This document shows, one piece after another, positions 7,418 to 22,041 of a stretch of DNA of 32,000 nucleotides. The notes beneath the pieces are model-generated. The model was not told where the DNA came from and searched no databases. It was given only the letters and a program-made list of their open reading frames with translations. How positions within the stretch are numbered: the first letter of the stretch is position 1; every line of letters begins with the position of its first letter. The position numbers and the translations under genes were made by a program. Source of the stretch: Deltaproteobacteria bacterium (GTDB taxonomy: Bacteria > Bdellovibrionota > JACOXK01); contig JACOXK010000058.1 of the NCBI GenBank assembly GCA_016182335.1, positions 1 through 32,000 of the forward strand, read 5' to 3'.

Positions 7418-7907
7418 GGCCCAGATTGCTGAGAAGTCTTATAAGATCGATGTTCAGAAAAAAATGGCATCCTACGTTATAAAGATTGATTCTTCAGTTT
7501 ATGATATTCCCTTAAATTGGGAAAATCTGTTTGAACTTCATCATAAAACTCAGCAGGTTATTGCTTCCACAGTTTCAAAAACAAAGTTACGCTGTTTTAT
7601 TAATGGTCGGGCTTTGGATGTATTTATTCAGACTGAACAGGAAAAAATTCAAAGTTCACTTTCGCAGGCTGAAGAAGGACGTGAGTTGATAACTTCTATG
7701 CCCGGGAAAATTGTAAAAATTCTTGTAACTCAGGGCCAAAAAGTATCGAAAAATGAATCTGTTCTCATTATGGAAGCTATGAAAATGGAAAACATTTTGA
7801 AATCCCCTTGTAGTGGGGTTGTTCAATCGATTTATGTTAAAGAAAATGATAGTGTTGAGGCACAAACTAAGGTGCTTGAGATTGAATGTGAACAAGAAAA
7901 AATTTGA
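7407..7907 (+). CDS. accB: Biotin carboxyl carrier protein (biotinyl domain)
   Basis: 166 aa with a C-terminal biotinyl domain containing the EAMKMEN biotinylation motif. It overlaps accC by 11 nt. Confidence 0.85.
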
Positions 7908-9474: not shown

Positions 9475-9558
9475 GGTTTGATAATTCATTTTATTCTGTT
9501 TTATTTCAGAATTTGAATCTCAAGGCACTTTCAAATACAAATTCACTCTTTTTATTTT

Positions 9559-9647
9559 TCAATGGATGGATTGGTGAAGATCACGAAGGATTCCTTTAAT
9601 CTCATCGTTTTCAGGATCGAATTGAAGGGATGACTCAAATTCTTTGA
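9559..9647 (-). pseudogene. Orphan 3'-end fragment of a TPR gene (left copy of the 89-bp direct repeat)
   Basis: By manual alignment it matches 21544..21632 with 2 mismatches in 89 bp (9601 c vs 21586 t; 9613 a vs 21598 g). It encodes the last 28 codons plus the stop of the TPR protein (...KEFESSLQFDPENDEIKGILRDLHQSIH*). An in-frame TAA lies just upstream and there is no start codon. Confidence 0.85.
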
Positions 9648-9686
9648 AGTCTTTCCCGAATACAATCTCTTAGTAAGGTGTGCTAT

Positions 9687-11324
9687 TCAACGTAGGGTCG
9701 GATGATCCCTAAAAACACCGGGTTGCACCCACAATTGATCGCGCTGAATTTCCTCTAAATTTAACTGACCATTATGAAAAAGTGCTTTGAGACTTGTTAA
9801 AACTGCCTTTTCTGCAGCAACTATCTTCGATGGCGTCACTTTTCGCTTGAAATCTTCTTCAATATGAAGAGCGACATATTCAGCAATTTGAGGAGGAAGT
9901 TTAGAAATAATTAAGTTTTTATAAGCAGAGAGCTTTCCTAGAAGAACAGCGACAATGTCATCTCGTGAAAGTTGGCTTAAAAATAGAGTCAGGTCATTTT
10001 CTTCCAGAAGACTTACAAGATCAAGTGTTATAATGCTTGATTTTAATTTCATGCCAAGCGTTGTATCTGCTTTTAAAATATCGTCTGCAAGTTCGTCGGG
10101 TTTATCATGAGATTCAACTAAATTGATAAGTGCATTAAATCCGGATGTTTCGTACAGATTCAAACTTGTGAGTTGAGCAGCTCGGTGGGCCAAGCGAAAA
10201 CTTAAATACTTAAGCTCATTCCAAGGCAGTGTTTCTATTGTGGCCAGTTCCAAAGCGACTGATTTCTGATCACTATCTTTTAAATTTTTAAACACGTTAC
10301 TTCGTGTTTCAATATCGAGTTGTAAAAGAAGGAGCGCTTGGCATCGAATATCTTCACCTTTAACCAAGTGAGCTATTTTTGTTGGTTCTAAATTTTTAAG
10401 AAAATCAAAATTGGACTCAATAACTTGATTTTCTTTCAGAGACAACAAACTTTCAAGTTCTATTTCATGACGAAACTGTGTTCCTATGCGCTTTACATCG
10501 GATACGCTTAAGTGCTGCATTTTTGAAAACTCAGATGTGAGCTCCTCTGCAGAGTTATTATTAAGAACTCCCTTAAGCTCTGATCGAAGATGAGTAGGAA
10601 GTGTGATAAGGACTTGAAGTGCATGGTGTAAACCCTGCGGCGATGCTGCCCACCGTTTCAACACATTTTTTGCTGTGCTCAGATGAGAAGCAACGAGATC
10701 TGCATAATGCGCTGGGCTTTGAATTGTTAGAGAATCTCCAATCGATATCCCTTGAGGGATTTCCTGATATGAAGGCACGACAGTGGGGGAGGGTTGAGAT
10801 TCGTGTTTTAAAACTGATGGCAAAACTGTTTTTTTCCTTTGACGACGCATAAAATAGAAGATGCCCATAATAGCTGCAAGAGTGGACATAATAAGAAAAA
10901 TCAGTAAAAAATAACCTCTTAAGTTTGAGAATATAGTTGGGTGAGGCACGGCTACAAATGAGTAATTTAAATGAAGTGCTGATTGAAATGGTTGTGCTTG
11001 ATGTTCAATATATTTTTGAAGAAAATCCCTAGTTTTTTGTGGAAGTTTCTCATCAGCCAGAATATTAACATCAATACCAGAAATAACAGTAGATGTTTGT
11101 GCTGCACTACCAGATTCTTCAAATCCAGGTTCCACAATACTACGTTGAACTGTAGTTTTTGAAGAGGATTTGATGAATACATCTAAGCACAGCTGTGGAC
11201 AATGGAGTTTGAATAACTCAAGAATGACAGGTTTCAAAACGCTTTCAGGCGTTTGTCCTGCACTGAACAAAGTCGTCATCGAGAGACTCACTACTAATTG
11301 ACTTAAGAGAATGAGTTTTTTCAT
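9687..11324 (-). CDS. Membrane-anchored FliG-like protein (signal peptide, ~115 aa periplasmic domain, one TM helix, ~380 aa cytoplasmic FliG/MgtE_N-like ARM repeats)
   Basis: 545 aa. It has an N-terminal signal peptide (MKKLILLSQLVVSLSMTTLFSA), a TM helix at aa 138-158 (YFLLIFLIMSTLAAIMGIFYF) and a following RRQRKK stop-transfer. Three FliG-like modules follow. The last one, LSRDDIVAVLLGKLSAYKNLIISKLPPQIAEYVALHIEEDFKRKVTPSKIVAAEKAVLTSLKALFHNGQLNL, resembles the FliG C-terminal torque-helix domain pattern (MSkRaaeml.EDle...v...dve.aq..iv...r.L...GeI). An AAGGTGG RBS precedes it, 13 nt after motB. Confidence 0.6.
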   Translation of the reverse strand: MKKLILLSQLVVSLSMTTLFSAGQTPESVLKPVILELFKLHCPQLCLDVFIKSSSKTTVQRSIVEPGFEESGSAAQTSTVISGIDVNILADEKLPQKTRDFLQKYIEHQAQPFQSALHLNYSFVAVPHPTIFSNLRGYFLLIFLIMSTLAAIMGIFYFMRRQRKKTVLPSVLKHESQPSPTVVPSYQEIPQGISIGDSLTIQSPAHYADLVASHLSTAKNVLKRWAASPQGLHHALQVLITLPTHLRSELKGVLNNNSAEELTSEFSKMQHLSVSDVKRIGTQFRHEIELESLLSLKENQVIESNFDFLKNLEPTKIAHLVKGEDIRCQALLLLQLDIETRSNVFKNLKDSDQKSVALELATIETLPWNELKYLSFRLAHRAAQLTSLNLYETSGFNALINLVESHDKPDELADDILKADTTLGMKLKSSIITLDLVSLLEENDLTLFLSQLSRDDIVAVLLGKLSAYKNLIISKLPPQIAEYVALHIEEDFKRKVTPSKIVAAEKAVLTSLKALFHNGQLNLEEIQRDQLWVQPGVFRDHPTLR

Positions 11325-11337
11325 AGAACCACCTTTT

Positions 11338-11982
11338 TTAATAAATTTTTAACGTTACCCTTCTGTTTATATTTCTGTATTCCTCAGCATCTGCAACTTC
11401 AGCTTTCTCTTCAAGTTTTTTAGGTCTCGTATGGGCAAATCCCCTTAATTGAATTCGATTTTCATCAATGCCGTGAAAACGCAAAAAATTAAGGAACTCC
11501 ATAGCCCTGTAGGCTGACAATTCCCAATTAGATGGAAATTTAAGTGTATGAATGGGTACATTATCTGTATGTCCCTCAACAATAAACGCCCATTTGTGAT
11601 CAATTGTTTTTAACTCCGAAACAAATGTCAAAATATGTGGCTTAGCCTCTTCCAAGAGGGCACTTTCTCCGGATTGAAATAAGAGAGAATGACTAAAATC
11701 AATTTCCAGAGACTCTTGTCCAATGCTTGTTGAAATCTTGGATTCCAAATGATTTGAGATGATAATAGAGTCAATCTGTTTTTTTAAATCGGCCAAAGAA
11801 TATTTAGGTTTTTTTTTGAAGTAATTCGTGAGCGATTCAAACCGATATGTGCTCATCACTGACATGGAGAGGAGAAATGCAAAGAAAACATAGAGATTTG
11901 TGATGAGATCTGAATAAGAAAGCAGCCATGGTGACTCATCATTCCGTGCAAACATGCTGTTTTGTACCAGTTCTTCAAGCAT
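11338..11982 (-). CDS. MotB-like stator subunit (TM plug with conserved Asp plus OmpA-like peptidoglycan-binding domain)
   Basis: 214 aa. The N-terminal SPWLLSYSDLITNLYVFFAFLL matches the MotB TM helix and includes the proton-binding Asp context (Y-S-D-L). The C-terminal OmpA-family motif series is IVEGHTDNVPI, NWELSAYRAMEFLNFL and NRRVTLKI. Its start directly abuts the motA-like stop. Confidence 0.85.
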   Translation of the reverse strand: MLEELVQNSMFARNDESPWLLSYSDLITNLYVFFAFLLSMSVMSTYRFESLTNYFKKKPKYSLADLKKQIDSIIISNHLESKISTSIGQESLEIDFSHSLLFQSGESALLEEAKPHILTFVSELKTIDHKWAFIVEGHTDNVPIHTLKFPSNWELSAYRAMEFLNFLRFHGIDENRIQLRGFAHTRPKKLEEKAEVADAEEYRNINRRVTLKIY

Positions 11983-12804
11983 TTAGATTTCCAAGCGGAT
12001 TGTCGTCGTCCCCATTTTTGGATGCGAAACAATTCGAGAGGAGCTTTCTGTGGCTGTTATGAAAGCAGCAAGATTTTCTTTTAATATCGGTCCATATACC
12101 TGGTTTTTAATAAGCTCTAAAGCTTCAATCATCATGGCATGAGATCTAGATTCCAGTTCCACATGATTGTTCACGTGACGAATGACTGGGAAGTAAAAAG
12201 CATAACTTGCAAGCAATCCGTACAAAGTCGTTAGCAACGCAAGCGCCATGCCAGCCCCAATCTGACTAAAATCGTCCATATTCTGTAACAGTGAAACCAA
12301 TCCTAACACTGTTCCCATCATGCCAAGAGCAGGTGTTATTTTTGACGAAAAATCAAACACCGAGATTTCTTTGAGGTCCTGAAGTCGCTTTGCATGCCAT
12401 TTATTTTTCAAAATACTTTTCAGTTCATCGGCATTATAATTTCCATTAAAAGTATGAATGCCTTCTCTTAAAAAGAGAGGCATATCTTGTGTGGGCGCAG
12501 CGATACGTCCACTTCGCTGATACTCTTTGGAACAATCCACAAGATGAGAAATGAGGCGTTGCTGTGATACTTTTTCAGGAGAAAAAAATACTTTAATGAG
12601 TCGACCCCAGGCCTTTAAAATATCTGAAAGTCCAAAGCTGTAGAGAACAATGAAAATGTGCCCTACAACTACAAATAAGAAGCTTGGTAGGTTAAACAAG
12701 CCTTTATATTCACTCGATCTTGATTGCATGATAAACAACAGGATCCACAAAAAACCGATAAGACCTATAAGGCTTGCGCATTTTCTCACCCACTGATAGT
12801 TCAT
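11983..12804 (-). CDS. MotA-like stator subunit (MotA/TolQ/ExbB proton-channel family, 4-TM MotA topology)
   Basis: 273 aa. Two N-terminal TM helices are followed by a ~100 aa cytoplasmic loop (SGRIAAPTQDMPLFLREGIHTFNGNYNADELKSIL, compare the MotA pattern GllalE...pfl..gl.l.vdg.d.e). TM3/TM4 then carry ITPALGMMGTVLGLVSLL and GAGMALALLTTLYGLLASYAFYFPV. Confidence 0.85.
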   Translation of the reverse strand: MNYQWVRKCASLIGLIGFLWILLFIMQSRSSEYKGLFNLPSFLFVVVGHIFIVLYSFGLSDILKAWGRLIKVFFSPEKVSQQRLISHLVDCSKEYQRSGRIAAPTQDMPLFLREGIHTFNGNYNADELKSILKNKWHAKRLQDLKEISVFDFSSKITPALGMMGTVLGLVSLLQNMDDFSQIGAGMALALLTTLYGLLASYAFYFPVIRHVNNHVELESRSHAMMIEALELIKNQVYGPILKENLAAFITATESSSRIVSHPKMGTTTIRLEI

Positions 12805-13430
12805 GATTTTGTTTTTGGTGAAAGAGTTGTAGGTGAAGACGCAGGGAGGCGAGAAATAGCCTGACGAATAATAGTATTAGCAGGATCTTCTTTAAGAACC
12901 AAAGACCATGATTCTCTGGCTAAATCATACATTCCTACCTTGGATGCAACGGTCCCGCGCAAGGAGAGAAGCTTCGTATCGCTTGGATAGGATTCAACAA
13001 GGGATTCCAATGTTACGAGTGCTAGTTCATAGTCTTTTTTACGAAAATGCTCTTTTACTTTCGCCAAACCTAAGAGATAACTTTGTCTGGCTAAAGATTG
13101 GCCAGATAAGGCAACCACATCTTGACCTTGAATCTGAGAATTGTCGTCACCAGATGATGGTATAGTTTGTAACCCATCAGTGTGAGAACTTTTAAGCTCT
13201 GCAAGAGTGTAGCGCACTAAAGTCGATTCACTATTTTCTCCAAGTGCTATTTCAATAGCATTCAAACCGAAGGACCGGCGAATGGTAATGGGTGATTTCG
13301 ATGACTGAGCTGTGTCTATGGTAAATGGATTGGATATTTCAGGGGAAGAGTGTTTGGAAATTTTGCGCATGGAAGCACATCCAACAATAAGAGACAAACA
13401 GATAATGACAAAAAGTTTTTTTCTATTCAT
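12801..13430 (-). CDS. TPR-repeat lipoprotein
   Basis: 209 aa with the lipobox LSLIVGC-A. The C-terminal half is TPR-like (YELALVTLESLVESYPSDTKLLSLRGTVASKVGMYDLARESWSLVLKEDPAN). A 4-nt ATGA-type overlap with the motA-like gene indicates translational coupling. Confidence 0.7.
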   Translation of the reverse strand: MNRKKLFVIICLSLIVGCASMRKISKHSSPEISNPFTIDTAQSSKSPITIRRSFGLNAIEIALGENSESTLVRYTLAELKSSHTDGLQTIPSSGDDNSQIQGQDVVALSGQSLARQSYLLGLAKVKEHFRKKDYELALVTLESLVESYPSDTKLLSLRGTVASKVGMYDLARESWSLVLKEDPANTIIRQAISRLPASSPTTLSPKTKS

Positions 13431-13433
13431 TGT

Positions 13434-14591
13434 TTACCACCTCATATTGATATTGAATGCAATATCTAAACAAAAACCAGAAACTTTTTTCGATTGTTTA
13501 TCAGACGAAAATTGTATTTGATTGCCAATGAGTTGAATCTTTTCAGAGCTCAGCATGGCATCTGACGGAAATAAGTAATTGATGTTGGCAGAAATTCCAA
13601 ATTTCTTTCCAATATCGAGCAAAAAACCTGGACCTAAAACAAAAGACTGATAGTTGTTTGTAAGAAGTGGGCCGCCGCCTACTGTTATATATTTTCTAAA
13701 TTTTTCTCCGCCCAGATTCATGAGGAGTTTTAACTCAAGAAGCCCCCCAGCATTGAGAAGAATGTCTTTATTGCTGGAATCTGAGAGTGGCTCAGTAAAT
13801 CCAGAGAGAATAATGCCAAAGTGATCAATAAACCCTCCCATGTACTCGAGTAGAGAGAAACTCACACTTGGATAATTCACATGATTTTCAAATCCAGGTA
13901 ATAGGAAAAAACCAGGGCTTACGGCGAGCCGATATTTAGCAAGGATGTTCACCGAGTCCGAAGGCCGTTTTGTGACAGAATCTTGTGATAGCAGCTGTCG
14001 CTCTGGATCGAGCGAAGAATATTTATCGCTCCAAATGACTTCTCCCTTAATAGCATCAAAAATGGCAACGCTCAAAACGATTTCATGTGGGGTATAATGG
14101 AATGTGCTTTCCAGGAAATAGCGAGTTCCCAAACTATGAGAGAGAGATTGCAATTCTTCATTTTTTTGCACACCCTGTTGCACAATAAGGTCATTAGCAT
14201 CCGTTGTGACAAGAGTGCGAAAGCAGCTCATACATTTGATAGATTTAATGGAGACTTTTTCAATGAGGGCCTGATCGATTCTATCTCGAAGAATATCGCG
14301 AAACTTAGGTTGGATATCACCCTGGAGATTGATTTTATACTGGCTTAATTTTTGAATACGTAAGTTTGAACTCGAAAGATCTGTAGCAAATCTCTCAACA
14401 AGAGAGTCCAGTACAGAGTAGAAATCAATTTTTCCATCAAGCGTGCTTGCATATTCCGCATTGACGTGATTTGAAAAAAACACAACACAGTTTAATCCAA
14501 GAAAAATAACGAGAAATCGCAGTAGAACAAAACGATTTTGCAACACAAAACGACCTTCACCCAACGCTAACTTTTTTTGATAAGATGTCAA
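13434..14591 (-). CDS. Secreted two-domain envelope protein, candidate outer-membrane beta-barrel
   Basis: 385 aa. The signal peptide ends HVNA-EY. The N-terminal ~170 aa has the alternating pattern seen in FlgO/CsgG/LpoB-like periplasmic modules (...LGTRYFLESTFHYTPHEIVLSVAIFDAIKGEVIWS). The C-terminal half is Gly/aromatic-rich with amphipathic strands and ends ...IAFNINMRW, an aromatic terminus typical of OMPs. The family assignment is inference. Confidence 0.45.
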   Translation of the reverse strand: MTSYQKKLALGEGRFVLQNRFVLLRFLVIFLGLNCVVFFSNHVNAEYASTLDGKIDFYSVLDSLVERFATDLSSSNLRIQKLSQYKINLQGDIQPKFRDILRDRIDQALIEKVSIKSIKCMSCFRTLVTTDANDLIVQQGVQKNEELQSLSHSLGTRYFLESTFHYTPHEIVLSVAIFDAIKGEVIWSDKYSSLDPERQLLSQDSVTKRPSDSVNILAKYRLAVSPGFFLLPGFENHVNYPSVSFSLLEYMGGFIDHFGIILSGFTEPLSDSSNKDILLNAGGLLELKLLMNLGGEKFRKYITVGGGPLLTNNYQSFVLGPGFLLDIGKKFGISANINYLFPSDAMLSSEKIQLIGNQIQFSSDKQSKKVSGFCLDIAFNINMRW

Positions 14592-14598
14592 CTTTCAT

Positions 14599-15639
14599 TC
14601 AGGGTAACAGTATGTGATAGCGGATATCCACTTGGTCACCAGCAGCCACATGAGACCTTTTGAGGAAAAACAACTCCTGTGTTGACTCGTTATAATGCCA
14701 CTCACTTGGGTTTGCTTTAAGACCATTAAGATAAACCTCAATAGAACCGCGTTGTGCAGCATAGGTTAAAACTTTACGAGTCATATGCTCAAAAAGTATT
14801 TGTATTATTTTATTTATGACTTGTTTTGAATCTTGCAAGAGATCACACAATTCAAGACTTATGCCAGAAGTTTGACTTACAAATTCAGCAAGAGTTGTTG
14901 CTCGTCGATACTCCAAGTTATTGCATTGATCACTTCCCTCTTTGAAAATGAGGGCAATAGGTTGGAACAGTGCTTTTGATTTTAATGTCTGCATAGAGGC
15001 TACAATGTGATCGACTGGAGTTGTTCCTTCGTCATCCGCGTTAGATATAAAAATTGGAAAGAAATGGGTATTTCCTTCTCGAAGGAATCCGCTTTTCATG
15101 AGGGTTACCAACTTCTCAAGTGGGAAATTTGATGCTTCTCCCCCAGTAAAGTTTAAAGCTCCAAGAGTTTCTGATAATTTATTGAGTCCACTCACCGTGA
15201 AAGCGTTATTCGCAAAAATATCCTCTCCCCATGGAGTACTATCATGGGATGTTATCAACCGAAGTTTGAAAGAAAGCTTTGGTCGAAGATGGTGATATTC
15301 TGGAGGGTCCATGAGAGAGGCTAAGAGAAGATGACTTGATTCTTTGAGGGCTTGAATAAAAGGTGACATTTTTTTCTTGGCATGAAGAATAAATGCTATA
15401 TCAAGGTTTCCCTGTGGCACTTCGTGAATGAAACCATCCAACCACAGCTGTGGCAGGGATGTGGCGGGAGGTTCTAATAATGGGGGATTGTCAGGTTCGT
15501 AATGTGGGCTAACAGGCGCAGGTAACGGTTTCTCTTTTTGCTTAGGTGCAATAAATTCAGGAGCTCCACAATGAAGAAAGAGTGTTGCCACAAGAAGGGA
15601 TATAAATTTATGGATTTTGAGGATCTTGTTTGACACCAT
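14599..15639 (-). CDS. Secreted vWA-like paralog with a degenerate MIDAS (possible non-canonical lipoprotein)
   Basis: The ORF is open to 15777, but that extension overlaps the upstream gene by 170 nt. The internal ATG at 15639 gives the signal peptide MVSNKILKIHKFISLLVATLFLHCG. The position equivalent to the vWA MIDAS reads LDIAFILHAKKKM, so the DxSxS is lost. The C-terminal motif IEVYLNGLKANPSEWHYNESTQELFFLK..AAGDQVDIRY is shared with the two neighbouring vWA lipoproteins. Confidence 0.55.
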   Translation of the reverse strand: MVSNKILKIHKFISLLVATLFLHCGAPEFIAPKQKEKPLPAPVSPHYEPDNPPLLEPPATSLPQLWLDGFIHEVPQGNLDIAFILHAKKKMSPFIQALKESSHLLLASLMDPPEYHHLRPKLSFKLRLITSHDSTPWGEDIFANNAFTVSGLNKLSETLGALNFTGGEASNFPLEKLVTLMKSGFLREGNTHFFPIFISNADDEGTTPVDHIVASMQTLKSKALFQPIALIFKEGSDQCNNLEYRRATTLAEFVSQTSGISLELCDLLQDSKQVINKIIQILFEHMTRKVLTYAAQRGSIEVYLNGLKANPSEWHYNESTQELFFLKRSHVAAGDQVDIRYHILLP

Positions 15640-16846
15640 ACAACACTGTAATTTTTCCACCTTGCGGCACTTTGGGTTTGTTCGTAAGGATGATTTCATT
15701 TTTTTGAGTATCATAAGTAAAGTCACGTCCCATAAGCAGTGGATAATAATTATAAAGAACTTTAAAAGACTTGCCATCGAAAGTATGGGGAATTTTTTTA
15801 AGAATAATTCTTTTTGTGTAGGATAAAGAGAGTTGTGCTACATCACTCAATGTATTCTTTTTCAAAAGCTCACATAAATCCAGTCGATGTCCATAGAAAT
15901 GTTGGTGACTGAGTTGTTCTAATTTATCTGATGTCTTGGTTAAACTGTAAGGACAAGTCTGAATATTCATGCGAAATAGCGCTGTAAATACGCTTAAGTA
16001 CGGTGGTCTATAAATTTTATGAATTTGTGACAAAAAATGAGAGGTTGCTATGTCATGAGAAAGCTCGTCCGAACTTATGAAGAAAAATACACTGAGCGCA
16101 TCTTCCTCTCGAAAATCGGCAGAGTTATGTAATAACTCCAGTGTTTTAGAATAAGAAAGAATATGAGGTTGGCCTTGATATCCAAGCTGTGACATGAATT
16201 GAGGAAAGACGGCAAAATCTCGTGCCGTACTTATAAAGTTTTTCCCACTCACAGAAATGAGACGTGCTTCATCAGAAGGCATGAATCCTATCTTATATTG
16301 AAGATGAGAGAGATTGTTTGATAAAAATTCTGGAGCAAATTTTGTGCTTGCTAAGACAAGATCAGAGTGAATGTCTTCCATAGGTTCCGAGGTATCAACG
16401 ACAAAAAGTATTGAGAGTTTTCCAGAAGGAAGGCCGTAATAAAAATCTTCCTCATAAAGTTGAAAATCTGGAGGAGTTGGCCCACCAGGTTGTGTAGGAT
16501 CTGGAAGAGGAATGGGCACTGGATCAGGATTGCCTCCTCCCCCGCCCCCTGGAGTTCCACCTTCACCGGGATTGGTACCTGGTGCGCTCCCCCCTCCTGA
16601 ACCGCCATTAGGAGGAGATCCCGGAGTGCCACCGCCTCCTGGGTTGGTGTCAGGTGAACCATTACTATCTCCACCAGAACCAGCGTCTGGAGGGACAATT
16701 TTTCCATCCGGTGTTTTATTTTCAACATAGAGATTAAAGACTCGGCGAGAGCTTGAACCGCAAGATAAATTGAAAACTAACGGTGCAACAATGGCTAATG
16801 GAACTATTACTGACTTCACGGTTGAAGGTAACCTTAAGTCATTCAT
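15608..16846 (-). CDS. vWA-domain lipoprotein with a Gly/Pro-rich low-complexity linker
   Basis: 412 aa with the lipobox VFNLSC-G. A ~75 aa G/P/N/S/T-rich linker spans aa 52-127. The vWA-like core follows, with LSILFVVDTSEPMEDI as a partly degenerate MIDAS (DxSxP) and a later FFFISSDE. The C-terminal beta-domain is FKVLYNYYPLLMGRDFTYDTQKNEIILTNKPKVPQGGKITVLY. Confidence 0.7.
   Translation of the reverse strand: MNDLRLPSTVKSVIVPLAIVAPLVFNLSCGSSSRRVFNLYVENKTPDGKIVPPDAGSGGDSNGSPDTNPGGGGTPGSPPNGGSGGGSAPGTNPGEGGTPGGGGGGNPDPVPIPLPDPTQPGGPTPPDFQLYEEDFYYGLPSGKLSILFVVDTSEPMEDIHSDLVLASTKFAPEFLSNNLSHLQYKIGFMPSDEARLISVSGKNFISTARDFAVFPQFMSQLGYQGQPHILSYSKTLELLHNSADFREEDALSVFFFISSDELSHDIATSHFLSQIHKIYRPPYLSVFTALFRMNIQTCPYSLTKTSDKLEQLSHQHFYGHRLDLCELLKKNTLSDVAQLSLSYTKRIILKKIPHTFDGKSFKVLYNYYPLLMGRDFTYDTQKNEIILTNKPKVPQGGKITVLYGVKQDPQNP
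16466..16693 (-). repeat. Low-complexity Gly/Pro-rich coding tract inside the 412-aa lipoprotein gene
   Basis: It encodes DAGSGGDSNGSPDTNPGGGGTPGSPPNGGSGGGSAPGTNPGEGGTPGGGGGGNPDPVPIPLPDPTQPGGPTPPD, with iterated units of the type TNPG-GGG-TPG. It also creates spurious ORFs in other frames and on the other strand. Confidence 0.8.
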
Positions 16847-16899
16847 TCAGGTAATTTTATTACAAAAGCTCTTCGTATCATTGTCAAATAATTGGAGCT

Positions 16900-18012
16900 T
16901 TGTTAGATCATAATATAATTAGGTATCGTTGTTCAGTGAAAAAAATTATCATTTTAGTTGCTTTTGCATCTCTGACATCGTGCGAAAAAACGGGTCTTAA
17001 GTACGAAACTTCTTTAGAGGATGATCCTTCACGTATTGTTTTTGTTGATCCTCGAATTATTTCCTCCCATAAACCTCCATGGATGCAACCGTATAGACGC
17101 GTCATTGAGCGTGATACTGCGCCTGTAAATCAACCGCCTTCGCGCGGAATTTTTACTAACGTGGTGGATAAGTATGAGAAGAAAAAAAATCATGAAGAGG
17201 CTGATATTTTATGGGTTATTGATAATTCGTGCAGCATGGCTGAAGAACGTGACAAAGTTTCACAAAATCTCGATGCTTTTATGAGGGACTTTAAATTGAG
17301 TCATGTTGATTTTCATATGGGTGTTATTTCAACACACACCCATGATGCTCTTTTTTATGGAGCCCCACCCGTGCTTCTTTCAAATGATCCAGAATTAGAG
17401 CGCAGATTTTCAGAACGTGTTCGGATGCCGCAAGTATGCGGTTTTTCTGCTGCTTTGCATGCTGCCCATTTGGCGCTGAGCGAGCCGCGAATTTCTGGAT
17501 ATAACAAAGATTTTTTACGATCAGAAGCGCATCTCATTATTATTATCATTTCTGACGCAGATGAAGACTATAAAATGAGCAGCTCTGAATATCTTAGTTT
17601 TTTCCAGTCACTTAAAGCAAGTGAACCGCATAAAGTCGTCATTAACTCCATCGTTGGAGATTCTCCGAGTGGTTGTTCATCTGCTGGCGGGAATGCAGAA
17701 CCTGGGTTGCAATACATTGAATTAACACAAAGTACTCGAGGTTTTTTTGAAATCATTTGCAGTAACAACTTTAAAGAAAGCATGAACAATATTGGCCGTA
17801 ATCTCGATAAATATATCAACTCTTATCCACTGACTCATATTCCTTCAATTCGATATCCTCTTGTTGTTACAATCAATGGTCGTGTCGTGGAGCGACACCC
17901 AATACATGGCTGGGTGTACAATGCCGAACTCAATCTTATTTTATTTGAGGGAGATATTAAACCTATTGTTGGAGATAAAATTGAAATCGCTTACCTTCAT
18001 GAAGAAAATTAG
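16900..18012 (+). CDS. vWA-domain lipoprotein with an intact MIDAS motif
   Basis: The ORF starts at TTG 16900. The in-frame GTG at 16936 gives the clean lipoprotein signal MKKIIILVAFASLTSC-E and is probably the real start. The vWA core is ADILWVIDNSCSMAEERDKVSQNLDAFM (DxSxS intact) with a later LIIIIISDADED. The C-terminal beta-domain is LVVTINGRVVERHPIHGWVYNAELNLILFEGDIKPIVGDKIEIAY. Confidence 0.8.
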   Translation: MLDHNIIRYRCSVKKIIILVAFASLTSCEKTGLKYETSLEDDPSRIVFVDPRIISSHKPPWMQPYRRVIERDTAPVNQPPSRGIFTNVVDKYEKKKNHEEADILWVIDNSCSMAEERDKVSQNLDAFMRDFKLSHVDFHMGVISTHTHDALFYGAPPVLLSNDPELERRFSERVRMPQVCGFSAALHAAHLALSEPRISGYNKDFLRSEAHLIIIIISDADEDYKMSSSEYLSFFQSLKASEPHKVVINSIVGDSPSGCSSAGGNAEPGLQYIELTQSTRGFFEIICSNNFKESMNNIGRNLDKYINSYPLTHIPSIRYPLVVTINGRVVERHPIHGWVYNAELNLILFEGDIKPIVGDKIEIAYLHEEN

Positions 18013-19033
18013 TCTTCTTATAAGCTTATTTCTAGTGGGCTTGACCTCTCAAGGATTAGCACTGGTTTGGTGGGGCGAAGAAATAACCTCACTTAAATAC
18101 ATTATGCCCATCCAATATTTTGTACGAAATGAAGATGTTTTTTACATGGGGCTTCAAAACTTTGGTATTGATCGTGTCATTTACAATAATTACAAACTTT
18201 CTCGTGATAAAGTTTTTAGATTCTCTGGTATCATGGACCCTTCTGTGAAATTAAACTTCCTTCTTAAAGGCGATATGCTCATAGTTGGAGGCATTTACGA
18301 CGGTTTTTTAGCACTCGATACAAAATCGGATTATCCATCACCCACTTCAAAGAGACATGATCTTGTTTTTAAGCCCAATGAAAATACAATTGTTTATTCT
18401 TCTCTTCTCAAATCCCTCTTATGGAAAGGTCAACTTGTACTTCTTACGGCTGATCAGGTTATTCTGGGTAGTCTGCAGAACCCACTTAAGTTTAACGTCA
18501 ATGCGAGCGTTGGTTTAGCGCCAAATTATCCTTTGCAACCCAATGATTGGAAAGAATTTTGGGCTACCGATATGGCGCTCTATGGCAATTATTTGTACGT
18601 TCTTCTTGCGCATGAGAAAACTCCGCAGATTGCATACCTTAACCTTTCACAGCCACTGGAAAGTCTTAAAGTAAATTATGTTCCCCTCAATGTTTCAGAA
18701 TATTATCTTAAATCCTTAGCGGTTAGTGATAGTAGATTATATATAACTCAGAATAAGACACTTCATAGTTTTGTCATTGATGAAGAAGGCATGCCGACCG
18801 TGGAGTGGTCGCATACCCAGAAGCACTTCATAGAAACTGTAACTACGTTTTCGATGGGTATTATTCTCTCGTTCTTTGAGGCTGGACTTGCGTTCTTTGA
18901 AAATCAAGACCTTACAAAAGAACAGGCCATTATTTTTCCTCCAAAAACTTGGGAGCAGGTTGAGGTTGTGGATAATCTTTTGTTTGGTTCAGCAGGAGAA
19001 GATGGTTTTTATGTATATCAAAAATATAATTAA
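17999..19033 (+). CDS. Secreted beta-propeller-like protein (LVIVD-like repeats)
   Basis: The ORF is open from 17861. The ATG at 17999 gives the signal peptide MKKISLLISLFLVGLTSQGLA and overlaps the upstream stop by 14 nt. It has recurrent blade-like motifs: GDMLIVGGIYDGFLALDTKSDYPSP, LYGNYLYVLLAHEKTPQIAYLNLSQP, VSDSRLYITQNKTLHSFVIDEEGMP and LLFGSAGEDGFYVY. The family call is by pattern only. Confidence 0.5.
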   Translation: MKKISLLISLFLVGLTSQGLALVWWGEEITSLKYIMPIQYFVRNEDVFYMGLQNFGIDRVIYNNYKLSRDKVFRFSGIMDPSVKLNFLLKGDMLIVGGIYDGFLALDTKSDYPSPTSKRHDLVFKPNENTIVYSSLLKSLLWKGQLVLLTADQVILGSLQNPLKFNVNASVGLAPNYPLQPNDWKEFWATDMALYGNYLYVLLAHEKTPQIAYLNLSQPLESLKVNYVPLNVSEYYLKSLAVSDSRLYITQNKTLHSFVIDEEGMPTVEWSHTQKHFIETVTTFSMGIILSFFEAGLAFFENQDLTKEQAIIFPPKTWEQVEVVDNLLFGSAGEDGFYVYQKYN

Positions 19034-19667
19034 GACATTGATATTTTTCTCTTTGTGGGGATGGACTGGAACTATCTTGGGTGAGTCGCCTTCGCAAAGC
19101 ACTTGGCTGGATTACGAAATCCGTCTTAAAGCCGTGTACAACCAAAAATATGAGCACCATCATCGACATGAGCTCTCCACTTTTTCATCACTGTATTTTA
19201 GAAATGATCTTAATTTATCATATGGTTTTGGAGCTGATTATGCCTATCATTTCACTCCTACTTTAAGTTGGGAAGCGGCTCATTTTCTTTACTTAAATCA
19301 AGTTGAGACAATACTGCGCCAGGATATAAGAAATAAAACAGGTTTGATACCGGATGTAGAAGAAAATGAATTCTTTGTTACTTCTTCAATCATGTTTCAT
19401 CCTGCGTACGGCAAATTGGCTTTCTTTGGAAGGCACATTGCGTATTTTGATCTCTATGTTGTTGCGGGTGGAGGCATTCGAAAACTCTTGAACCTTTCTC
19501 AACTTAAATCTGCTTTTTCGTTTGGTGCAGGTTTCAGATGCTATCTGAGTCACAAACTTACTCTCAAGATTGATGCCAGAGACATGTTGTTTCAGGAAGA
19601 ACATCAATCCGGTGCATCTATTATTCATTCTTTTACACCTGTTTTAGGATTGAGTTTACTTCTATGA
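19002..19667 (+). CDS. Outer-membrane beta-barrel protein (myxobacterial-type OMP domain, GltA/GltB-like)
   Basis: The ORF is open from 18876. ATG 19002 or 19011 gives the signal peptide (M)YIKNIIKTLIFFSLWGWTGTILG, and GGAGAAG lies just upstream. The sequence has alternating amphipathic strands and the motif HPAYGKLAFFGRHIAYFDLYVVAGGGI, which I recognise from the OMP_myx_plus-type beta-barrel family. Confidence 0.6.
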   Translation: MVFMYIKNIIKTLIFFSLWGWTGTILGESPSQSTWLDYEIRLKAVYNQKYEHHHRHELSTFSSLYFRNDLNLSYGFGADYAYHFTPTLSWEAAHFLYLNQVETILRQDIRNKTGLIPDVEENEFFVTSSIMFHPAYGKLAFFGRHIAYFDLYVVAGGGIRKLLNLSQLKSAFSFGAGFRCYLSHKLTLKIDARDMLFQEEHQSGASIIHSFTPVLGLSLLL

Positions 19668-20734
19668 AGTTAAAACTCTGTGTCATTACATATTTCATAT
19701 TTACTTTTGCCAATGCAGACTTTCCCCGAATGGCGGATGCATGGCGTGCCTATGCTAACCAAGATTACATTCAATCTTTGCAACAGTTGTACAGGGTCCG
19801 CAGCATTGCTCAAGAAAGAGTGCTTGCTGAAACCTTTTATTTGGAAGGACTTTTGGCTTACCGATTGGGTTATAGTTTGAGGTTGGCAGCCATTTATCAG
19901 ACTTATGAAGTGCAGTTCATGCATAAGCTCTCTTCATTGCCAAATAATATAAAAAAAGATGTTTGCTTGTATTGGGTGAGGCTCTCAAGTCTTCTAGCAG
20001 ATGTTTATAAAAGTATGCTGGTGGTACAATCTGTAGAATTGTTCCAGTCTTTGTCTTCGACTGAAAGTGCACTTCGCACGCCTTCTGGATCTGGGGCTTA
20101 CACGTGGCCTCTGATACTAGCTACTGAGAAAGAAGTACAGGAGGTATGGTTGGATGAATTGGGTGCTGATACCATAATCACTATTTCTGAAAAGAAAGAA
20201 AAGGGGGAGAGTCTTACTCCTGAAATTATTTTTGTTCGTTTAAGCGATGCAGTTTCACGCTCTCTTGTTTTTTATGAACAAAAAATTCTAGAGAAGGATT
20301 TTTTTTATAATCGCCTGCGTTTGCTCTTTTTAGATTATAAATTGGATAGAGGAGAAGGAGGAGAGGAGTTTTTGGTTGTATCTCAAAAAGCTTATCTGAA
20401 ACTCTATGGAGAAAGTCGGTTTTCAATGCTCCAGTCACTCATTCAACTTCGGCTGAGTAGAATCAACTCTAAACTTAAGACATTAAGGGCCATGAGTTTT
20501 AAGAAAAGTGTTACTGCAGTGACAAGCCAAAACTACAAAACTGATCAACCCAATATAGAGCATGTTATTGTTCTAGGCATGATTGAAACAAAGCCTATTC
20601 GCAAGGAAGCAGTGAGGCAAGGGGTGTCTTCTTTTTTCTCGGCTGATCCTGTACCCTATATACCTGGTGCCGGTCCGGAGAGTTGGAATGAGAAAATTGC
20701 AGAGTCCATCCATGACAAAAAAATCTCAGATTGA
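19664..20734 (+). CDS. Secreted hypothetical protein (helical, TPR-like N-terminus)
   Basis: 356 aa with the signal peptide MKLKLCVITYFIFTFANA. An ATGA start/stop overlap with the upstream OMP gene indicates coupling. I recognise no family. The N-terminal AWRAYANQDYIQSLQQLYRV...FYLEGLLAYRLG looks TPR-like. Confidence 0.5.
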   Translation: MKLKLCVITYFIFTFANADFPRMADAWRAYANQDYIQSLQQLYRVRSIAQERVLAETFYLEGLLAYRLGYSLRLAAIYQTYEVQFMHKLSSLPNNIKKDVCLYWVRLSSLLADVYKSMLVVQSVELFQSLSSTESALRTPSGSGAYTWPLILATEKEVQEVWLDELGADTIITISEKKEKGESLTPEIIFVRLSDAVSRSLVFYEQKILEKDFFYNRLRLLFLDYKLDRGEGGEEFLVVSQKAYLKLYGESRFSMLQSLIQLRLSRINSKLKTLRAMSFKKSVTAVTSQNYKTDQPNIEHVIVLGMIETKPIRKEAVRQGVSSFFSADPVPYIPGAGPESWNEKIAESIHDKKISD

Positions 20735-21539
20735 GTTTCGGCTGCTTGTCTTCAACAAGTCTTCTCTGATTAAAAAACTATCTTTTCGAACGGAAGAACT
20801 CATTCTTGGTTCGATAGCTCAATCTCAGGTTAATTTAACTAAGGCAGATGGTACTGTTCTTTTAGAAGGTAGATTCTACTGGAAGTCGAGGTACGTTCTG
20901 ATTTTTGAAAAACACTTCATGCAATCAGAAGAAATACAAGCAACTTTACTCCAGAATCACAATGCAAGTGCTGCCACGTTTGAGTATCAGAATGATGAGA
21001 TGGTAATACAGGTGAGATCTTTGCTCATAGGAGAACCGCCTGATTCTCTGTCAATACGACCTACCTTCACTCAAAATCTGTCTGTTCCAACGATAAAAAA
21101 ACAAGTTCATAAATCAGTATTTGTGACTGCAATGATAGTTCTTGTTGTGCAACTGAGCTTAATAGTAAAACTCAATGAGCGCAAAAACGTGAGATTAGAG
21201 GGGCATGAACAACAAATCTCTAAAGTTTTAGCCCCCACGGTCAACAAACCGTTCATGCCACGTATCCCAGGGCCTAAGCATTATGAAAAAATTATCTTAA
21301 AGAACAAAAAGGATATCGAGTTTTGTCAGAAAAACTTCGATTTTGAGGATGGCCCCGTTCAGTTCAAAGTGCTTATTAATCCTATGGGTGGAGTCTTTTC
21401 TGTCGATGTTTTGTCTTCCACACTTGGTGTGGAAATAATGGAGTGCTTGAATGCGAGAATTAAATCATGGTTGTTTCCCCCTATTGAAAATATTTCAAAA
21501 ACATTATTTTTTGCTGTGAATTTTAAAAAGGAATCTTGA
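20712..21539 (+). CDS. Single-pass membrane protein with a TonB-C / AgmX-PglI-type periplasmic C-terminal domain (GltG/GltJ-like)
   Basis: The ORF is open from 20667. The ATG at 20712 (MTKKSQIEF...) overlaps the upstream gene by 23 nt. The TM helix is VFVTAMIVLVVQLSLIV. The C-terminus, CQKNFDFEDGPVQFKVLINPMGGVFSVDVLSSTLGVEIMECLNARIKSWLFPP, fits the AgmX/PglI C-terminal (TonB_C-like) pattern C...G.v.v.f.I...G.v..v.v.sstl.....eC....i..w.FP. The cytoplasmic N-terminus is only weakly FHA-like. Confidence 0.6.
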   Translation: MTKKSQIEFRLLVFNKSSLIKKLSFRTEELILGSIAQSQVNLTKADGTVLLEGRFYWKSRYVLIFEKHFMQSEEIQATLLQNHNASAATFEYQNDEMVIQVRSLLIGEPPDSLSIRPTFTQNLSVPTIKKQVHKSVFVTAMIVLVVQLSLIVKLNERKNVRLEGHEQQISKVLAPTVNKPFMPRIPGPKHYEKIILKNKKDIEFCQKNFDFEDGPVQFKVLINPMGGVFSVDVLSSTLGVEIMECLNARIKSWLFPPIENISKTLFFAVNFKKES

Positions 21540-21543
21540 CCAT

Positions 21544-21632
21544 TCAATGGATGGATTGGTGAAGATCACGAAGGATTCCTTTAATTTCATCGTTTTCGGG
21601 ATCGAATTGAAGGGATGACTCAAATTCTTTGA
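21544..21632 (-). repeat. Right copy of the 89-bp direct repeat (authentic 3' end of the TPR gene)
   Basis: It matches 9559..9647 at an offset of 11,985 bp with 2 mismatches. Both mismatches fall at third codon positions and are synonymous in the TPR reading frame. Confidence 0.9.
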
Positions 21633-22041
21633 TGGCTTGATTGAGCCAACCCTTTTCGAAATAAATTCTTCCTAAATTAATATGGGGGTAGTGCCTGTAG
21701 GCGTACCTCTTCGATAGTTTTGCCATTTCAAGCCAAGCCATAGCTTCATCCATTTTTCCAAGCCTCATAAGATAGGAGCCTATATCATTGTAGGGATTCC
21801 CAAAATCTGGATCAATAGCAATGGCTTTTTTGCATAATTCAATGGCTTCGCTCAGTTGCTCTTTCATAGACAGCATCCAACCCCAGTAGGTATAGGCCTC
21901 TGGAGTTGGTTCATGACCAATGGATTGTTTGAAACATGAAATCGCAGAATCAATATCTTTTTGGGCCGCATAAGAGCAACCGCTATCCACAAGTTGCAGT
22001 GCCAAGAGAAGCTTCTTATCTAAAATCTTTCTCTCATTCAC
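21544..22041 (-). CDS. TPR-repeat protein (165 aa)
   Basis: It has several TPR units (AISCFKQSIGHEPTPEAYTYWGWMLSMKEQLSEAIELCKKAIAIDPDFGNPYNDIGSYLMRLGKMDEAMAWLEMA...). It starts 3 nt after the S8 protease stop, so it is probably co-transcribed with it. Confidence 0.8.
   Translation of the reverse strand: MNERKILDKKLLLALQLVDSGCSYAAQKDIDSAISCFKQSIGHEPTPEAYTYWGWMLSMKEQLSEAIELCKKAIAIDPDFGNPYNDIGSYLMRLGKMDEAMAWLEMAKLSKRYAYRHYPHINLGRIYFEKGWLNQAIKEFESSLQFDPENDEIKGILRDLHQSIH

Follow-up and report, generated by a model that had tools for sequence, protein, structure and literature searches.

An 11.9-kb gene cluster inserted between mcm and a small TPR gene in a Deltaproteobacteria bacterium contig, bracketed by a duplicated TPR 3' end

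The 11.9-kb motility-type cluster of 12 tightly packed ORFs that lies beside the methylmalonyl-CoA mutase gene (mcm) is a derived insertion between two genes that were ancestrally tail-to-tail, mcm itself and a small TPR gene. It lies within a 32-kb window (the whole stretch of DNA that was analysed), and the insertion event is recent. Tentatively, with slightly less than even confidence, we favour the reading that DNA arriving from a close relative, in which the cluster adjoined that relative's own TPR end, recombined within the TPR gene and displaced the resident 3' end. The features are listed in Table 1.

Table 1. Features of the insertion and its flanks (positions in the window)
Feature	Position	Strand	Description
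mcm (methylmalonyl-CoA mutase)	7813..9474	+	Pfam; last gene of the PCC/BC/BCCP/mcm operon
Spacer, mcm stop to orphan stop	9475..9558		84 nt, outside the repeat; presumed ancestral intergenic DNA
Left repeat copy	9559..9647	-	Orphan TPR 3' fragment, 28 codons + stop, at the ancestral position beside mcm
Inner-edge imperfect extension	9648..9655		8 nt, 6/8 match to 21633-21640, chance P ~0.005; candidate microhomology or junction zone
Left junction remainder	9656..9686		Rest of the 39 nt between orphan and FliG-like gene stop; novel left junction of the inserted DNA
Cargo block A	9687..14591	-	Pfam; blastx synteny; inverted relative to L007 and L008
FliG-like (putative membrane) protein	9687-11324	-	Block A, Pfam
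MotB-like	11338-11982	-	Block A, Pfam
MotA-like	11983-12804	-	Block A, Pfam
TPR lipoprotein	12801-13430	-	Block A
c05	13434-14591	-	Block A
Cargo block B: c06, c07	14599..16846	-	Secreted or lipoprotein-like, DxSxS-like motifs
Cargo block C: c08, c09, c10, c11, c12	16900..21539	+	NCBIfam; synteny
Right junction	21540..21543		4 nt, c12 stop to TPR stop
Right repeat copy	21544..21632	-	Functional final 28 codons + stop of the intact 165-aa TPR gene
Small TPR gene (target gene)	21544..22041	-	Pfam TPR families; last gene of the S8-protease/TPR operon

Pairwise alignment and a repeat finder both reproduced the direct repeat described in the initial annotation, with a strict core of 89 nt, two mismatches and a start-to-start spacing of 11,985 bp; a longer alignment (9558-9653 vs 21543-21638) covers 96 nt at 96% identity. 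According to the repeat finder, this pair is the sole long repeat in the window, and a 42-nt piece of it has two exact occurrences versus zero expected from 100 shuffles. Translated on the minus strand, either copy reads KEFESSLQFDPENDEIKGILRDLHQSIH followed by a stop codon. The ORF coordinates agree with the description of the right copy as the functional TPR 3' end, and 4 nt separate it from the last cluster gene, whose stop is at 21539. The left copy, annotated as an orphan, indeed has no in-frame start codon; it lies 84 nt past the mcm stop (9474), and it is 39 nt, rather than the 40 nt first given, from the stop of the FliG-like gene (9687). Similarity had been said to stop abruptly on both sides: this holds for the outer edge, which lies 1 nt beyond the stop codon, but the inner edge continues imperfectly for 8 nt. 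As already noted, the mismatches (C vs T at 9602, A vs G at 9614) are third-position changes and both are synonymous (Pro CCT/CCC; Glu GAG/GAA).

The source is a metagenome-assembled genome (MAG), and a chimeric contig could have acquired the second copy from mis-joined strain variants; the two differing sites are what strain alleles might show, and a related short scaffold (L003) looks chimeric at nearly the same place of the TPR gene. Nevertheless, we consider such an artefact a very remote prospect. Imperfect similarity between the novel junctions (downstream of FliG with TPR codon ~136, and c12 stop with TPR stop) extends to no more than 8 nt, too short for a k-mer mis-join. Furthermore, the contig is colinear and gene-dense across both junctions, the 12 genes are intact and orthologous to those of two clusters found elsewhere (L007 and L008), and the NCBI protein accession numbering fits exactly 12 proteins between mcm and TPR.

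The initial annotation had proposed a comparison of synteny with related genomes. By blastx and junction reading we found the order PCC-BC-BCCP-mcm followed by a convergent TPR gene, with no cluster between, on three contigs that represent two or more related lineages (L001/L002, L005, L006). The two genes are separated by a 63-nt spacer in L006 and have overlapping stops in L001 and L005, while more distant TPR homologues are not adjacent to mcm. Thus, having mcm next to TPR is characteristic of this clade; the orphan marks where the TPR 3' end lay ancestrally, and the cluster is the derived element. The 84-nt spacer beside the orphan contained no significant RNA structure and no terminator. 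On the other side of the cluster, the TPR protein is 100% identical to NCBI MBI2026809.1 and belongs to a conserved family of ~163 aa, and the S8-TPR adjacency is present in L003 too.

The caveat that a duplication followed by a deletion was conceivable, raised in the initial annotation with the lack of an integrase, was apt. In that scenario there would have been two TPR paralogues in the same orientation, one by mcm and one by the cluster, and one illegitimate deletion would have taken away the 5' portion of the copy beside mcm together with all DNA up to the FliG-like gene. A single deletion would account for the orphan and the abrupt inner edge, for the native composition of the cluster and for its lack of mobility genes, and it fits both copies having been coding during their divergence. 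However, an earlier and unobserved TPR duplication is needed, and the relatives contain neither a second TPR copy nor a cluster near mcm (L001, L005 and L006 each have a single TPR, beside mcm, on the contig). For the source MAG, the records show no further TPR with ≥90% identity (cluster size 1), and the placement of the cluster 4 nt from the TPR stop would still need explaining. On balance, the scenario appears decidedly improbable.

The age and composition of the insertion bear on its origin. Between the repeat copies dS is 0.13 and dN is 0, compared to a dS greater than 2 to the nearest sampled relative (L003); the event is therefore young. Composition, which the initial annotation had proposed comparing with the flanks, is indistinguishable from theirs and native: GC is 0.389 in the cluster vs 0.395 in the flanks, GC3 is 0.323 vs 0.315, the codon-usage distance between cluster and flanks (0.049) is lower than that between left and right flanks (0.071; permutation p = 0.085), and tetranucleotide frequencies correlate with r = 0.96-0.97. 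A young insertion of native composition implies a donor from the same or a very close lineage.

Native composition and the lack of mobility genes would also fit an origin within the same genome, by copy-or-cut-and-paste: template switching or staggered-end fill-in at a break or stalled fork within the TPR 3' end would have brought in the cluster from elsewhere in the genome, with 89 nt of the target duplicated in the repair. Coherently with this, the inner edge bears a microhomology-like extension and the cluster is internally rearranged, with block A inverted. On the other hand, the duplication ends, on its outer side, exactly at the stop codon (+1 nt) despite the 84-nt spacer; were the return point random, this would happen in a few percent of cases. 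Two differences that are both synonymous have P ~0.10 if the copies were initially identical and the orphan neutral. In addition, an 89-nt target duplication far exceeds those of known transposition systems, and terminal inverted repeats are absent. We regard this intragenomic transfer as quite unlikely.

Under the homology-driven insertion that we favour, the incoming DNA would have come from a close relative or from another source in the lineage, and would have borne the cluster directly beside its own TPR end. Homologous recombination with the resident chromosome would account for the exchange on the TPR/S8 side; at the other end, immediately downstream of the FliG-like gene, the join to codon ~136 of the resident TPR would have been illegitimate, at short microhomology. 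The incoming copy would complete the TPR gene, and the resident last 28 codons, moved 12 kb off, would persist as a non-coding orphan beside mcm. The process would be homology-facilitated illegitimate recombination (HFIR), sharing its logic with the 'C-terminal displacement' in rhs and T6SS loci; an identical product would result if a circular fragment integrated by RecA-mediated Campbell-type single crossover. Since the outer edge lies 1 nt past the stop, where TPR alleles with different neighbours lose homology, and since both differences are synonymous, we infer that the two copies derive from two sources rather than from a target duplication. We also take the join to have been homology-anchored and not integrase-catalysed. 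The likelihood ratio of both copies being coding when they diverged over a neutral orphan is ~6.6, a statistically weak value obtained from two differences only.

Further observations touch on this model. The 6/8 microhomology-like extension at the inner edge (P = 0.005) agrees with it; against it, the origin of the tight c12-TPR junction (4 nt) is shifted to an unseen donor lineage, and a site-specific integrase would give exactly this geometry. The donor-type arrangement (cluster beside TPR, no orphan) was not found, the closest database relative having 83% TPR identity. As regards precedents, the DNA molecules that HFIR integrates are described as small and linear (PMC3240628), and its frequency as lower by orders of magnitude than that of ordinary homologous recombination (PMC5361080); in the sources consulted we found no HFIR insert of 12 kb. 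The precedent for the mechanism is HFIR together with the orphaned 3' regions of T6SS and rhs loci (PMC5361080; de Vries & Wackernagel 2002 and Meier & Wackernagel 2003, as cited therein).

The initial annotation had instead likened the repeats to attL and attR of an island acquired or moved as one unit at the TPR 3' end. The empty sites uphold a derived insertion with a duplicated TPR 3' end, whereas the island itself was not borne out. Indeed, Pfam, NCBIfam and PADLOC identified no recombinase or transposase among the 12 ORFs between the repeats, no tRNA genes, Rfam matches or terminal inverted repeats were found, and there was no similarity to known plasmids or phages; composition is native and the noncoding edges measure 39 and 4 nt. 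The ends are not conserved either: blastx synteny placed the orthologous clusters of L007, L008 and L009 among other neighbours, with their genes in a different order, and the gene at the left boundary in L008 and L009 is c05 instead of the FliG-like one. The inversion of block A with respect to L007 and L008 implies that a complex rearrangement occurred in this lineage. A self-mobile island is thus unsupported, and the event is therefore a well-documented, fairly ordinary genome rearrangement.

An att-flanked element mobilised in trans is at most conceivable. More in general, the 12-kb unit could be, or recently have been, an integrative element whose attP mimicked the last ~89-97 nt of TPR, with the integrase lost or acting in trans (CIME-like, cis-mobilisable). 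Several observations fit this: the insert is framed by direct repeats, with the target gene restored by the nearer copy and the orphan at the far end; identity stops at the stop codon and partial similarity borders the identity block; relatives have empty sites; the cluster is patchily distributed, with contexts differing among the window, L008 and L009; and CIMEs, derivatives that retain attL and attR after loss of the integration genes, are described (PMC5704250). Nonetheless, 0/12 ORFs encode a recombinase, excisionase or relaxase, and the coding sequence stops just 4 nt and 39 nt short of the repeats, too little space for arm sites or decayed mobility genes to fit. The 89-mer has no significant inverted-repeat core and exceeds the 8-60 bp usual for IME att repeats (PMC5704250). 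The native composition and the differing order and boundaries of the orthologous clusters also count against site-specific integration, as does the fact that all cluster genes are structural parts of one envelope machine. Overall, it is unlikely, although not negligible.

Within that machine, the FliG-like protein carries FliG N, M and C domains and is encoded beside the MotA/MotB proton-channel pair; its N-terminal signal-peptide-like segment and mid-protein hydrophobic helix suggest a membrane anchor. NCBIfam gave an OMP_myx_plus beta-barrel above cut-off for c10, a weak match to a MIDAS adhesin model for c08 and a weak AgmX/GltG-type C-terminal domain for c12. Most cargo components are without family assignment, c06 and c07 having no Pfam or NCBIfam match, and the cluster includes no flagellar export or rod genes.

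Integration at the 3' end of a protein gene is also exemplified by ICESt1/ICESt3, at the 3' end of fda in Streptococcus thermophilus. With 3'-end-targeting integrative elements and CIMEs our insertion shares the multi-kb insert between direct repeats, the target gene completed by the near repeat, the displaced and orphaned end and the empty sites in relatives; CIMEs, like it, lack an integrase. It differs from them in having no recombinase, relaxase or remnant, no arm regions, a repeat longer than 8-60 bp and native composition, and in its cargo, one coherent structural operon set with orthologues of other ends and order. In Campbell-type single crossover, as in suicide-plasmid insertion, the homologous segment is duplicated as direct repeats around the insert, and the process is reversible. 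This is exactly the topology seen here, and the 89-bp repeats could mediate precise loss of the cluster, restoring the ancestral arrangement; however, a circular intermediate with only the cluster and 89-97 nt of TPR is needed, while no replicon or plasmid gene and no known-plasmid similarity is present.

The HFIR or 'C-terminal displacement' events that leave orphan 3' regions in rhs, CDI and Vibrio cholerae T6SS effector-immunity arrays (PMC5361080) resemble our case in that incoming DNA is homology-anchored in a conserved gene, the displaced 3' end becomes a downstream orphan of the same orientation, an integrase is unneeded and donors are close relatives. Here, by contrast, the gene whose end was displaced is a small TPR gene of housekeeping type and not a polymorphic toxin, and there is a single displacement, with no array and no observed donor arrangement.

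As for the cargo, it is a rare combination of MotA/MotB, a putatively membrane-anchored FliG-like protein and Glt-like envelope proteins. It recalls the Agl-Glt gliding machinery of Myxococcus and Bdellovibrio in c10, c12, the TPR lipoprotein and the MIDAS-like secreted proteins, but its motor is a flagellar-type MotA plus MotB with plug and OmpA domains rather than the TolQR-like AglRQS (cf. PMC12505986). In this respect it resembles the flagellar MotAB-FliG stator-rotor, as MotA/MotB adjoins a protein with all three FliG domains.

The initial annotation had described an 89-bp direct repeat with two mismatches on either side of the cluster, and pairwise alignment and a repeat finder agreed: the two copies lie in the same orientation, 11,985 nt apart, as the core of a pair of 96-nt stretches sharing 96% identity. 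The repeat finder detected no other long repeat in the 32-kb window, and a 42-nt piece of the repeat occurred exactly twice in the window, against zero occurrences expected from shuffles. The minus-strand translations of the left and right copies are alike, reading KEFESSLQFDPENDEIKGILRDLHQSIH followed by a stop. Both mismatches (9602, C/T; 9614, A/G) are synonymous third-position changes, as already reported (Pro CCT/CCC and Glu GAG/GAA). At the Glu codon all the relatives carry GAA, as the functional copy does, while the Pro codon is uninformative, which is too weak a signal for polarising the change.

The right copy is, as first read, the functional end of the TPR gene: it comprises the last 28 codons and the stop of the intact 165-aa gene, so that the target gene is restored by the gene-proximal copy, and only 4 nt separate it from the stop of c12, with which the cluster ends. 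The left copy, 84 nt past the stop of the methylmalonyl-CoA mutase gene (mcm) and 39 nt short of that of the FliG-like gene, had been called an orphan fragment, and no in-frame start was seen in it. Its translation as an ORF of its own or as a fusion with the FliG-like gene was discarded, given the missing start codon and a frame that differs from that of the FliG-like gene. A role as structured RNA or terminator was also discarded (fold z-scores of −0.4 and −1.3, no terminator found). The claim of abrupt edges held for one side: the outer edge of identity lies 1 nt beyond the stop codon. At the inner edge, similarity fades over the next 8 nt, which agree at 6/8 positions (chance P = 0.005) and are a candidate microhomology at the joint.

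Features of the window and of the compared loci (window coordinates unless a locus is named)
Feature	Position	Strand	Remarks
Propionyl-CoA carboxylase / biotin carboxylase / BCCP / methylmalonyl-CoA mutase operon	left flank, ends 9474	+	mcm at 7813-9474
Left repeat copy, orphan	9559-9647		96-nt aligned stretch 9558-9653
Cluster	9687-21539		12 ORFs
Inverted five-gene block, c05 to FliG-like	9687-14591		counterparts L007:1-3636 and L008:320-5293
FliG-like, 545 aa			FliG N, M and C domains above Pfam thresholds; N-terminal signal-peptide-like segment
MotB			plug and OmpA domains (Pfam)
MotA/ExbB-family protein			Pfam
TPR lipoprotein (c04)			Pfam
c08			weak match to a Bdellovibrio MIDAS-adhesin model
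c10			TIGR04565 OMP_myx_plus beta-barrel, 99.5 bits against a cut-off of 60 (NCBIfam)
c12			weakly like the AgmX/GltG C-terminal domain, 25 bits, below the cut-offs of NF033760 (650) and NF033768 (40)
c06/c07 overlap	15608-15777
c08/c09 overlap	17861-18012
c09/c10 overlap	18876-19033
c11/c12 overlap	20667-20734
Right repeat copy	21544-21632		96-nt aligned stretch 21543-21638
TPR gene	21544-22041	-	intact
TPR gene, S8 protease, glycosyltransferase, ftsZ-ftsA-ftsQ-ddl-murB-murC block	right flank	-
End of the TPR ORF in L003 and sequence beyond it	L003:1100-1559		equivalent to about window 21649
mcm 3' flank of L004	L004:4402-6101		GCA_964373325.1
mcm-TPR spacer of L006	L006:3026-3088

We then compared the mcm/TPR junction with that of related genomes. 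In L001 (GCA_016186995.1; 67% identity for TPR and 72% for mcm) the carboxylase-mcm operon is followed directly by a TPR gene pointing towards it, with overlapping mcm and TPR stops; L002, a Logan contig, encodes a TPR protein identical to that of L001. The same convergent arrangement was found in L005 (JGI), with a 4-nt overlap, and in L006 (ENA), with a 63-nt spacer formed by a long palindrome. The synteny expected where the cluster is absent was thus recovered, the mcm-TPR interval carrying no insert in L001/L002, L005 and L006. The TPR proteins of these four contigs end in S(I/V)H followed by the stop, as the orphan does. TPR belongs to a widespread family of ~163-aa proteins, and its remoter homologues in L011 and L012 (51% identity) are not adjacent to mcm; therefore, the mcm-TPR adjacency is a trait of this clade. 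Since the orphan occupies the position of the TPR tail in the uninterrupted genomes, the presence of the 11.9-kb cluster between mcm and TPR is the derived state, brought about by insertion. The initial inference that the cluster had moved in as one unit is strongly supported by the empty sites and by the orphan at the ancestral tail position, and we consider unitary insertion into the mcm/TPR junction highly probable.

An assembly artefact could in principle mimic such a structure, but it is unlikely: the similarity of each novel junction to its partner is limited to 8 nt at most, imperfectly matched, and the contig shows gene-by-gene colinearity with two loci bearing orthologous clusters (L007 and L008). 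In the NCBI MAG ("Deltaproteobacteria bacterium", 41,034-bp contig), the gap in protein numbering between mcm (MBI2026796.1) and TPR (MBI2026809.1) fits exactly 12 proteins.

Other arrangements were observed around the same junction. In L004, mcm is followed by an unrelated gene instead of TPR, the carboxylase-mcm operon continuing into a co-directional 457-aa gene without Pfam family; thus, the 3' flank of mcm is variable within the clade. A perfect palindrome of ~28 bp fills nearly the whole spacer of L006 and may be a terminator acting in both directions or a short repeat that was inserted there; the 84-nt mcm spacer of the window has no comparable hairpin. In the closest relative, L003 (81% identity for S8 and 83% for TPR), the TPR ORF ends at codon 131, 11-17 nt off the inner edge of the repeat, and the sequence past the break is internal to an asparagine-synthase-like gene, its GC being slightly raised (0.41 vs 0.39). 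Either the L003 scaffold is chimeric, or this spot underwent a second rearrangement. No relative nearer than L003 (83% TPR) was found in searches with TPR, mcm and MotA, nor by MotB alignment against genome and metagenome collections or in a metagenome search for exact matches to a 34-mer from the repeat.

The age of the insertion can be approximated from the two copies. Their dS is 0.13 and their dN is 0, values that are rough because they come from 28 codons with only two differences. With L003, the nearest sampled relative, dS exceeds 2 in S8 and has reached saturation in TPR; for mcm, the dS with L001 is about 3.4. Even so, the duplication is younger, by a factor of ten or more, than the divergence from every relative sampled. 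The comparison of GC, codon usage and k-mers with the flanks, proposed in the initial annotation, revealed no foreign signal, and the cluster was indistinguishable from its surroundings: GC was 0.389 in the cluster and 0.395 in the flanks, GC3 was 0.323 and 0.315, and tetranucleotide correlations were 0.96-0.97. The codon-usage (RSCU) distance between cluster and flanks (0.049) was lower than that between the left and right flanks (0.071; permutation p = 0.085). The contrast in composition and codon use expected of an integrative element is therefore absent. A young insertion leaves no time for amelioration, and hence the DNA came from the same or a very close lineage.

As the initial annotation had remarked, the cluster carries no integrase: Pfam, NCBIfam and PADLOC identified no recombinase, transposase, excisionase or relaxase among the 12 ORFs. 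These are tightly packed, with edge gaps of 39 nt and 4 nt and an internal divergent gap of 53 nt, which leaves no non-coding room for a decayed mobility gene. Insertion of a transposon with target-site duplication was rejected, as the duplication of 89 nt is far from the expected 2-15 bp, there is no transposase, and no terminal inverted repeats were found, the best end-to-end inverted match being no better than shuffles. Neither tRNA or tmRNA genes nor Rfam matches were detected in the window, so that a tRNA or ncRNA as insertion target was discarded, and a plasmid or phage origin was set aside in view of the lack of similarity between the cluster and known ones.

The search for the cluster in other genomes informed on its ends. 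Only four orthologues of the cluster MotA (48-55% identity) emerged among 5.8 billion proteins, followed by generic MotA scores, and three orthologous clusters of the FliG-like protein among 1.84 billion representatives; the only cluster-bearing loci found were L007, L008 (the L010 contig) and L009. No MotA orthologue from the MAG of L001 was present in the protein database, which suggests that the cluster is patchily distributed, keeping in mind that MAGs may be incomplete. The gene order in L007 and L008 is c05>c04>MotA>MotB>FliG-like> <c06<c07 c08>c09>c10>c11>, with c12 next in L008. In the window, the five genes from c05 to FliG-like are reversed relative to these loci, forming one minus-strand string c07>c06>c05>...>FliG-like; one breakpoint of this inversion is the left edge of the insertion, and no inverted repeats able to mediate it were found at the block borders. 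The orthologous clusters of L007, L008 and L009, all on short contigs without right ends, begin at c05, whose left neighbour is an unknown gene in L008 and a 5'-nucleotidase in L009. The 3' end of the FliG-like gene is the island edge in the window and is cluster-internal in L007 and L008. Taken together with the c05 boundary in L008 and L009, this indicates that the ends found in the window are not conserved element ends.

These results bear on the reading of the repeats as attL and attR of an island, in which a site-specific recombinase would have produced the same topology and the structure would be an att-flanked element now devoid of integrase. The direct repeats flanking the insert, the TPR gene restored by the gene-proximal copy and the unoccupied site in the relatives agree with it; the absence of tyrosine or serine recombinases and DDE transposases from the 12 ORFs, the native composition and ends unlike those of L007, L008 and L009 speak against it. 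We regard this origin as possible, without positive support. Its stronger form, in which the repeats are still working att sites of an integrase-less "motility island" mobilised by a recombinase acting in trans, with the TPR tail as landing pad, appears improbable to us. Under it, the truncated TPR of L003, a few codons off the same spot, would be a second strike at a hotspot; that a complete envelope machine, made up of a MotAB stator, its membrane-anchored FliG-like partner and outer components of Glt-like type, moved in this way between genomes of an uncultured clade seems similarly doubtful.

We rank first, over the recombinase-made topology, a recombination between the resident TPR gene and incoming DNA bearing its own TPR tail beside the cluster, although the sequence itself cannot decide between the two. 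This could have proceeded by a homology-anchored exchange with an illegitimate far joint (homology-facilitated illegitimate recombination, HFIR, or "C-terminal displacement") or by a RecA-mediated Campbell-type crossover. The ranking is motivated by the lack of any mobility function and of room for arm sites, by a repeat of 89 bp where the att repeats of IMEs typically span 8-60 bp (PMC5704250), by the native composition, by the chromosomal-type cargo and by the microhomology-looking inner edge. Its main weakness is that the required donor arrangement, the cluster beside TPR without orphan, was not found, no relative in the collections exceeding 83% identity for TPR or 55% for MotA. The repeat can also arise without a second TPR source, through target duplication during break repair or template switching. 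In that case, with an 84-nt spacer available, identity ending at the stop codon would be expected by chance only a few percent of the time if the return point were random. That both differences are synonymous is ~6.6 times likelier with two copies coding at divergence than with one of them a neutral orphan. Identity ending at the stop codon is instead expected where TPR genes with different downstream neighbours lose homology. For these two reasons a two-source origin is favoured, whether by recombination with incoming DNA, by a site-specific recombinase, or by a deletion between two former TPR paralogues, which can yield the same structure.

Rearrangements of this type are already known, and this further case is of modest interest by itself. 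Its value is that of a clean, datable case in which a multi-gene envelope machine was relocated or acquired without visible mobile-element machinery in an uncultured lineage. The insertion left the genes on either side undisrupted, and the displaced tail keeps a record of the ancestral arrangement and of the breakpoint. Furthermore, the 89-bp repeats predict precise loss of the cluster; therefore, a motility-type system may vary by presence and absence within the population.

The cargo, flagellar-type MotAB with a FliG-domain membrane protein in a non-flagellar, Glt-like setting, is probably of greater biological interest than the repeat, and orthologous loci are only 3-4 among billions of proteins. 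This rare set of 12 genes places MotA/MotB beside an apparently membrane-anchored FliG-domain protein, together with several secreted proteins with MIDAS motifs. The products may form a non-flagellar, stator-driven envelope machine. The single mid-protein hydrophobic helix of the FliG-like protein is probably a membrane span. About 300 weaker FliG-like matches (representatives P0324-P0469) include many proteins of 600-830 aa with the FliG-like region at the C-terminus, which points to a wider family of long FliG-domain proteins, as yet uncharacterised and separate from the flagellar FliG of ~335 aa. No Pfam families were found in the remaining eight cluster proteins, and single-sequence AlphaFold models were too poor (pLDDT 30 for c08 and 45 for the FliG-like protein). 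Some of the mechanical ORF calls overlap by 68-170 nt; as blastx aligns L007 and L008 only to regions well inside these ORFs, the real starts are probably further downstream. A Zorya defence island was rejected as a context for MotAB: the similarity seen was just of the generic ZorB/MotB kind, and neither ZorC nor ZorD was present.

Among known systems, the Agl-Glt gliding machinery has similar outer components, as c10 is a Myxococcus-type outer-membrane beta-barrel, while the resemblance of c12 to GltG/GltJ (AgmX/PglI C-terminal domain) falls under the cut-offs. The motor differs: there it is the TolQ/TolR-like AglRQS, whereas here it is MotA_ExbB and MotB with a FliG-domain partner. MotA with a MotB bearing MotB_plug and OmpA is a flagellar-type architecture (PMC12505986). 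As for the insertion, integrative elements at gene 3' ends share its attL/attR-like look, but their recombinase, usually encoded beside an att site, their compositional contrast and their conserved ends are absent here. A cis-mobilisable element (CIME), a derivative of an ICE or IME that keeps attL and attR after losing its integration and transfer genes and is mobilised by a cognate integrase in trans, would be compatible with the absent integrase, but the 12 ORFs retain no trace of mobility genes. Displaced 3' ends at T6SS and rhs loci have been attributed to HFIR (PMC5361080). With no donor found, the structure appears to fit an HFIR or C-terminal-displacement scar at all testable points: in such scars, as here, an orphan 3' fragment lies directly downstream of the insert, oriented like the intact upstream copy.
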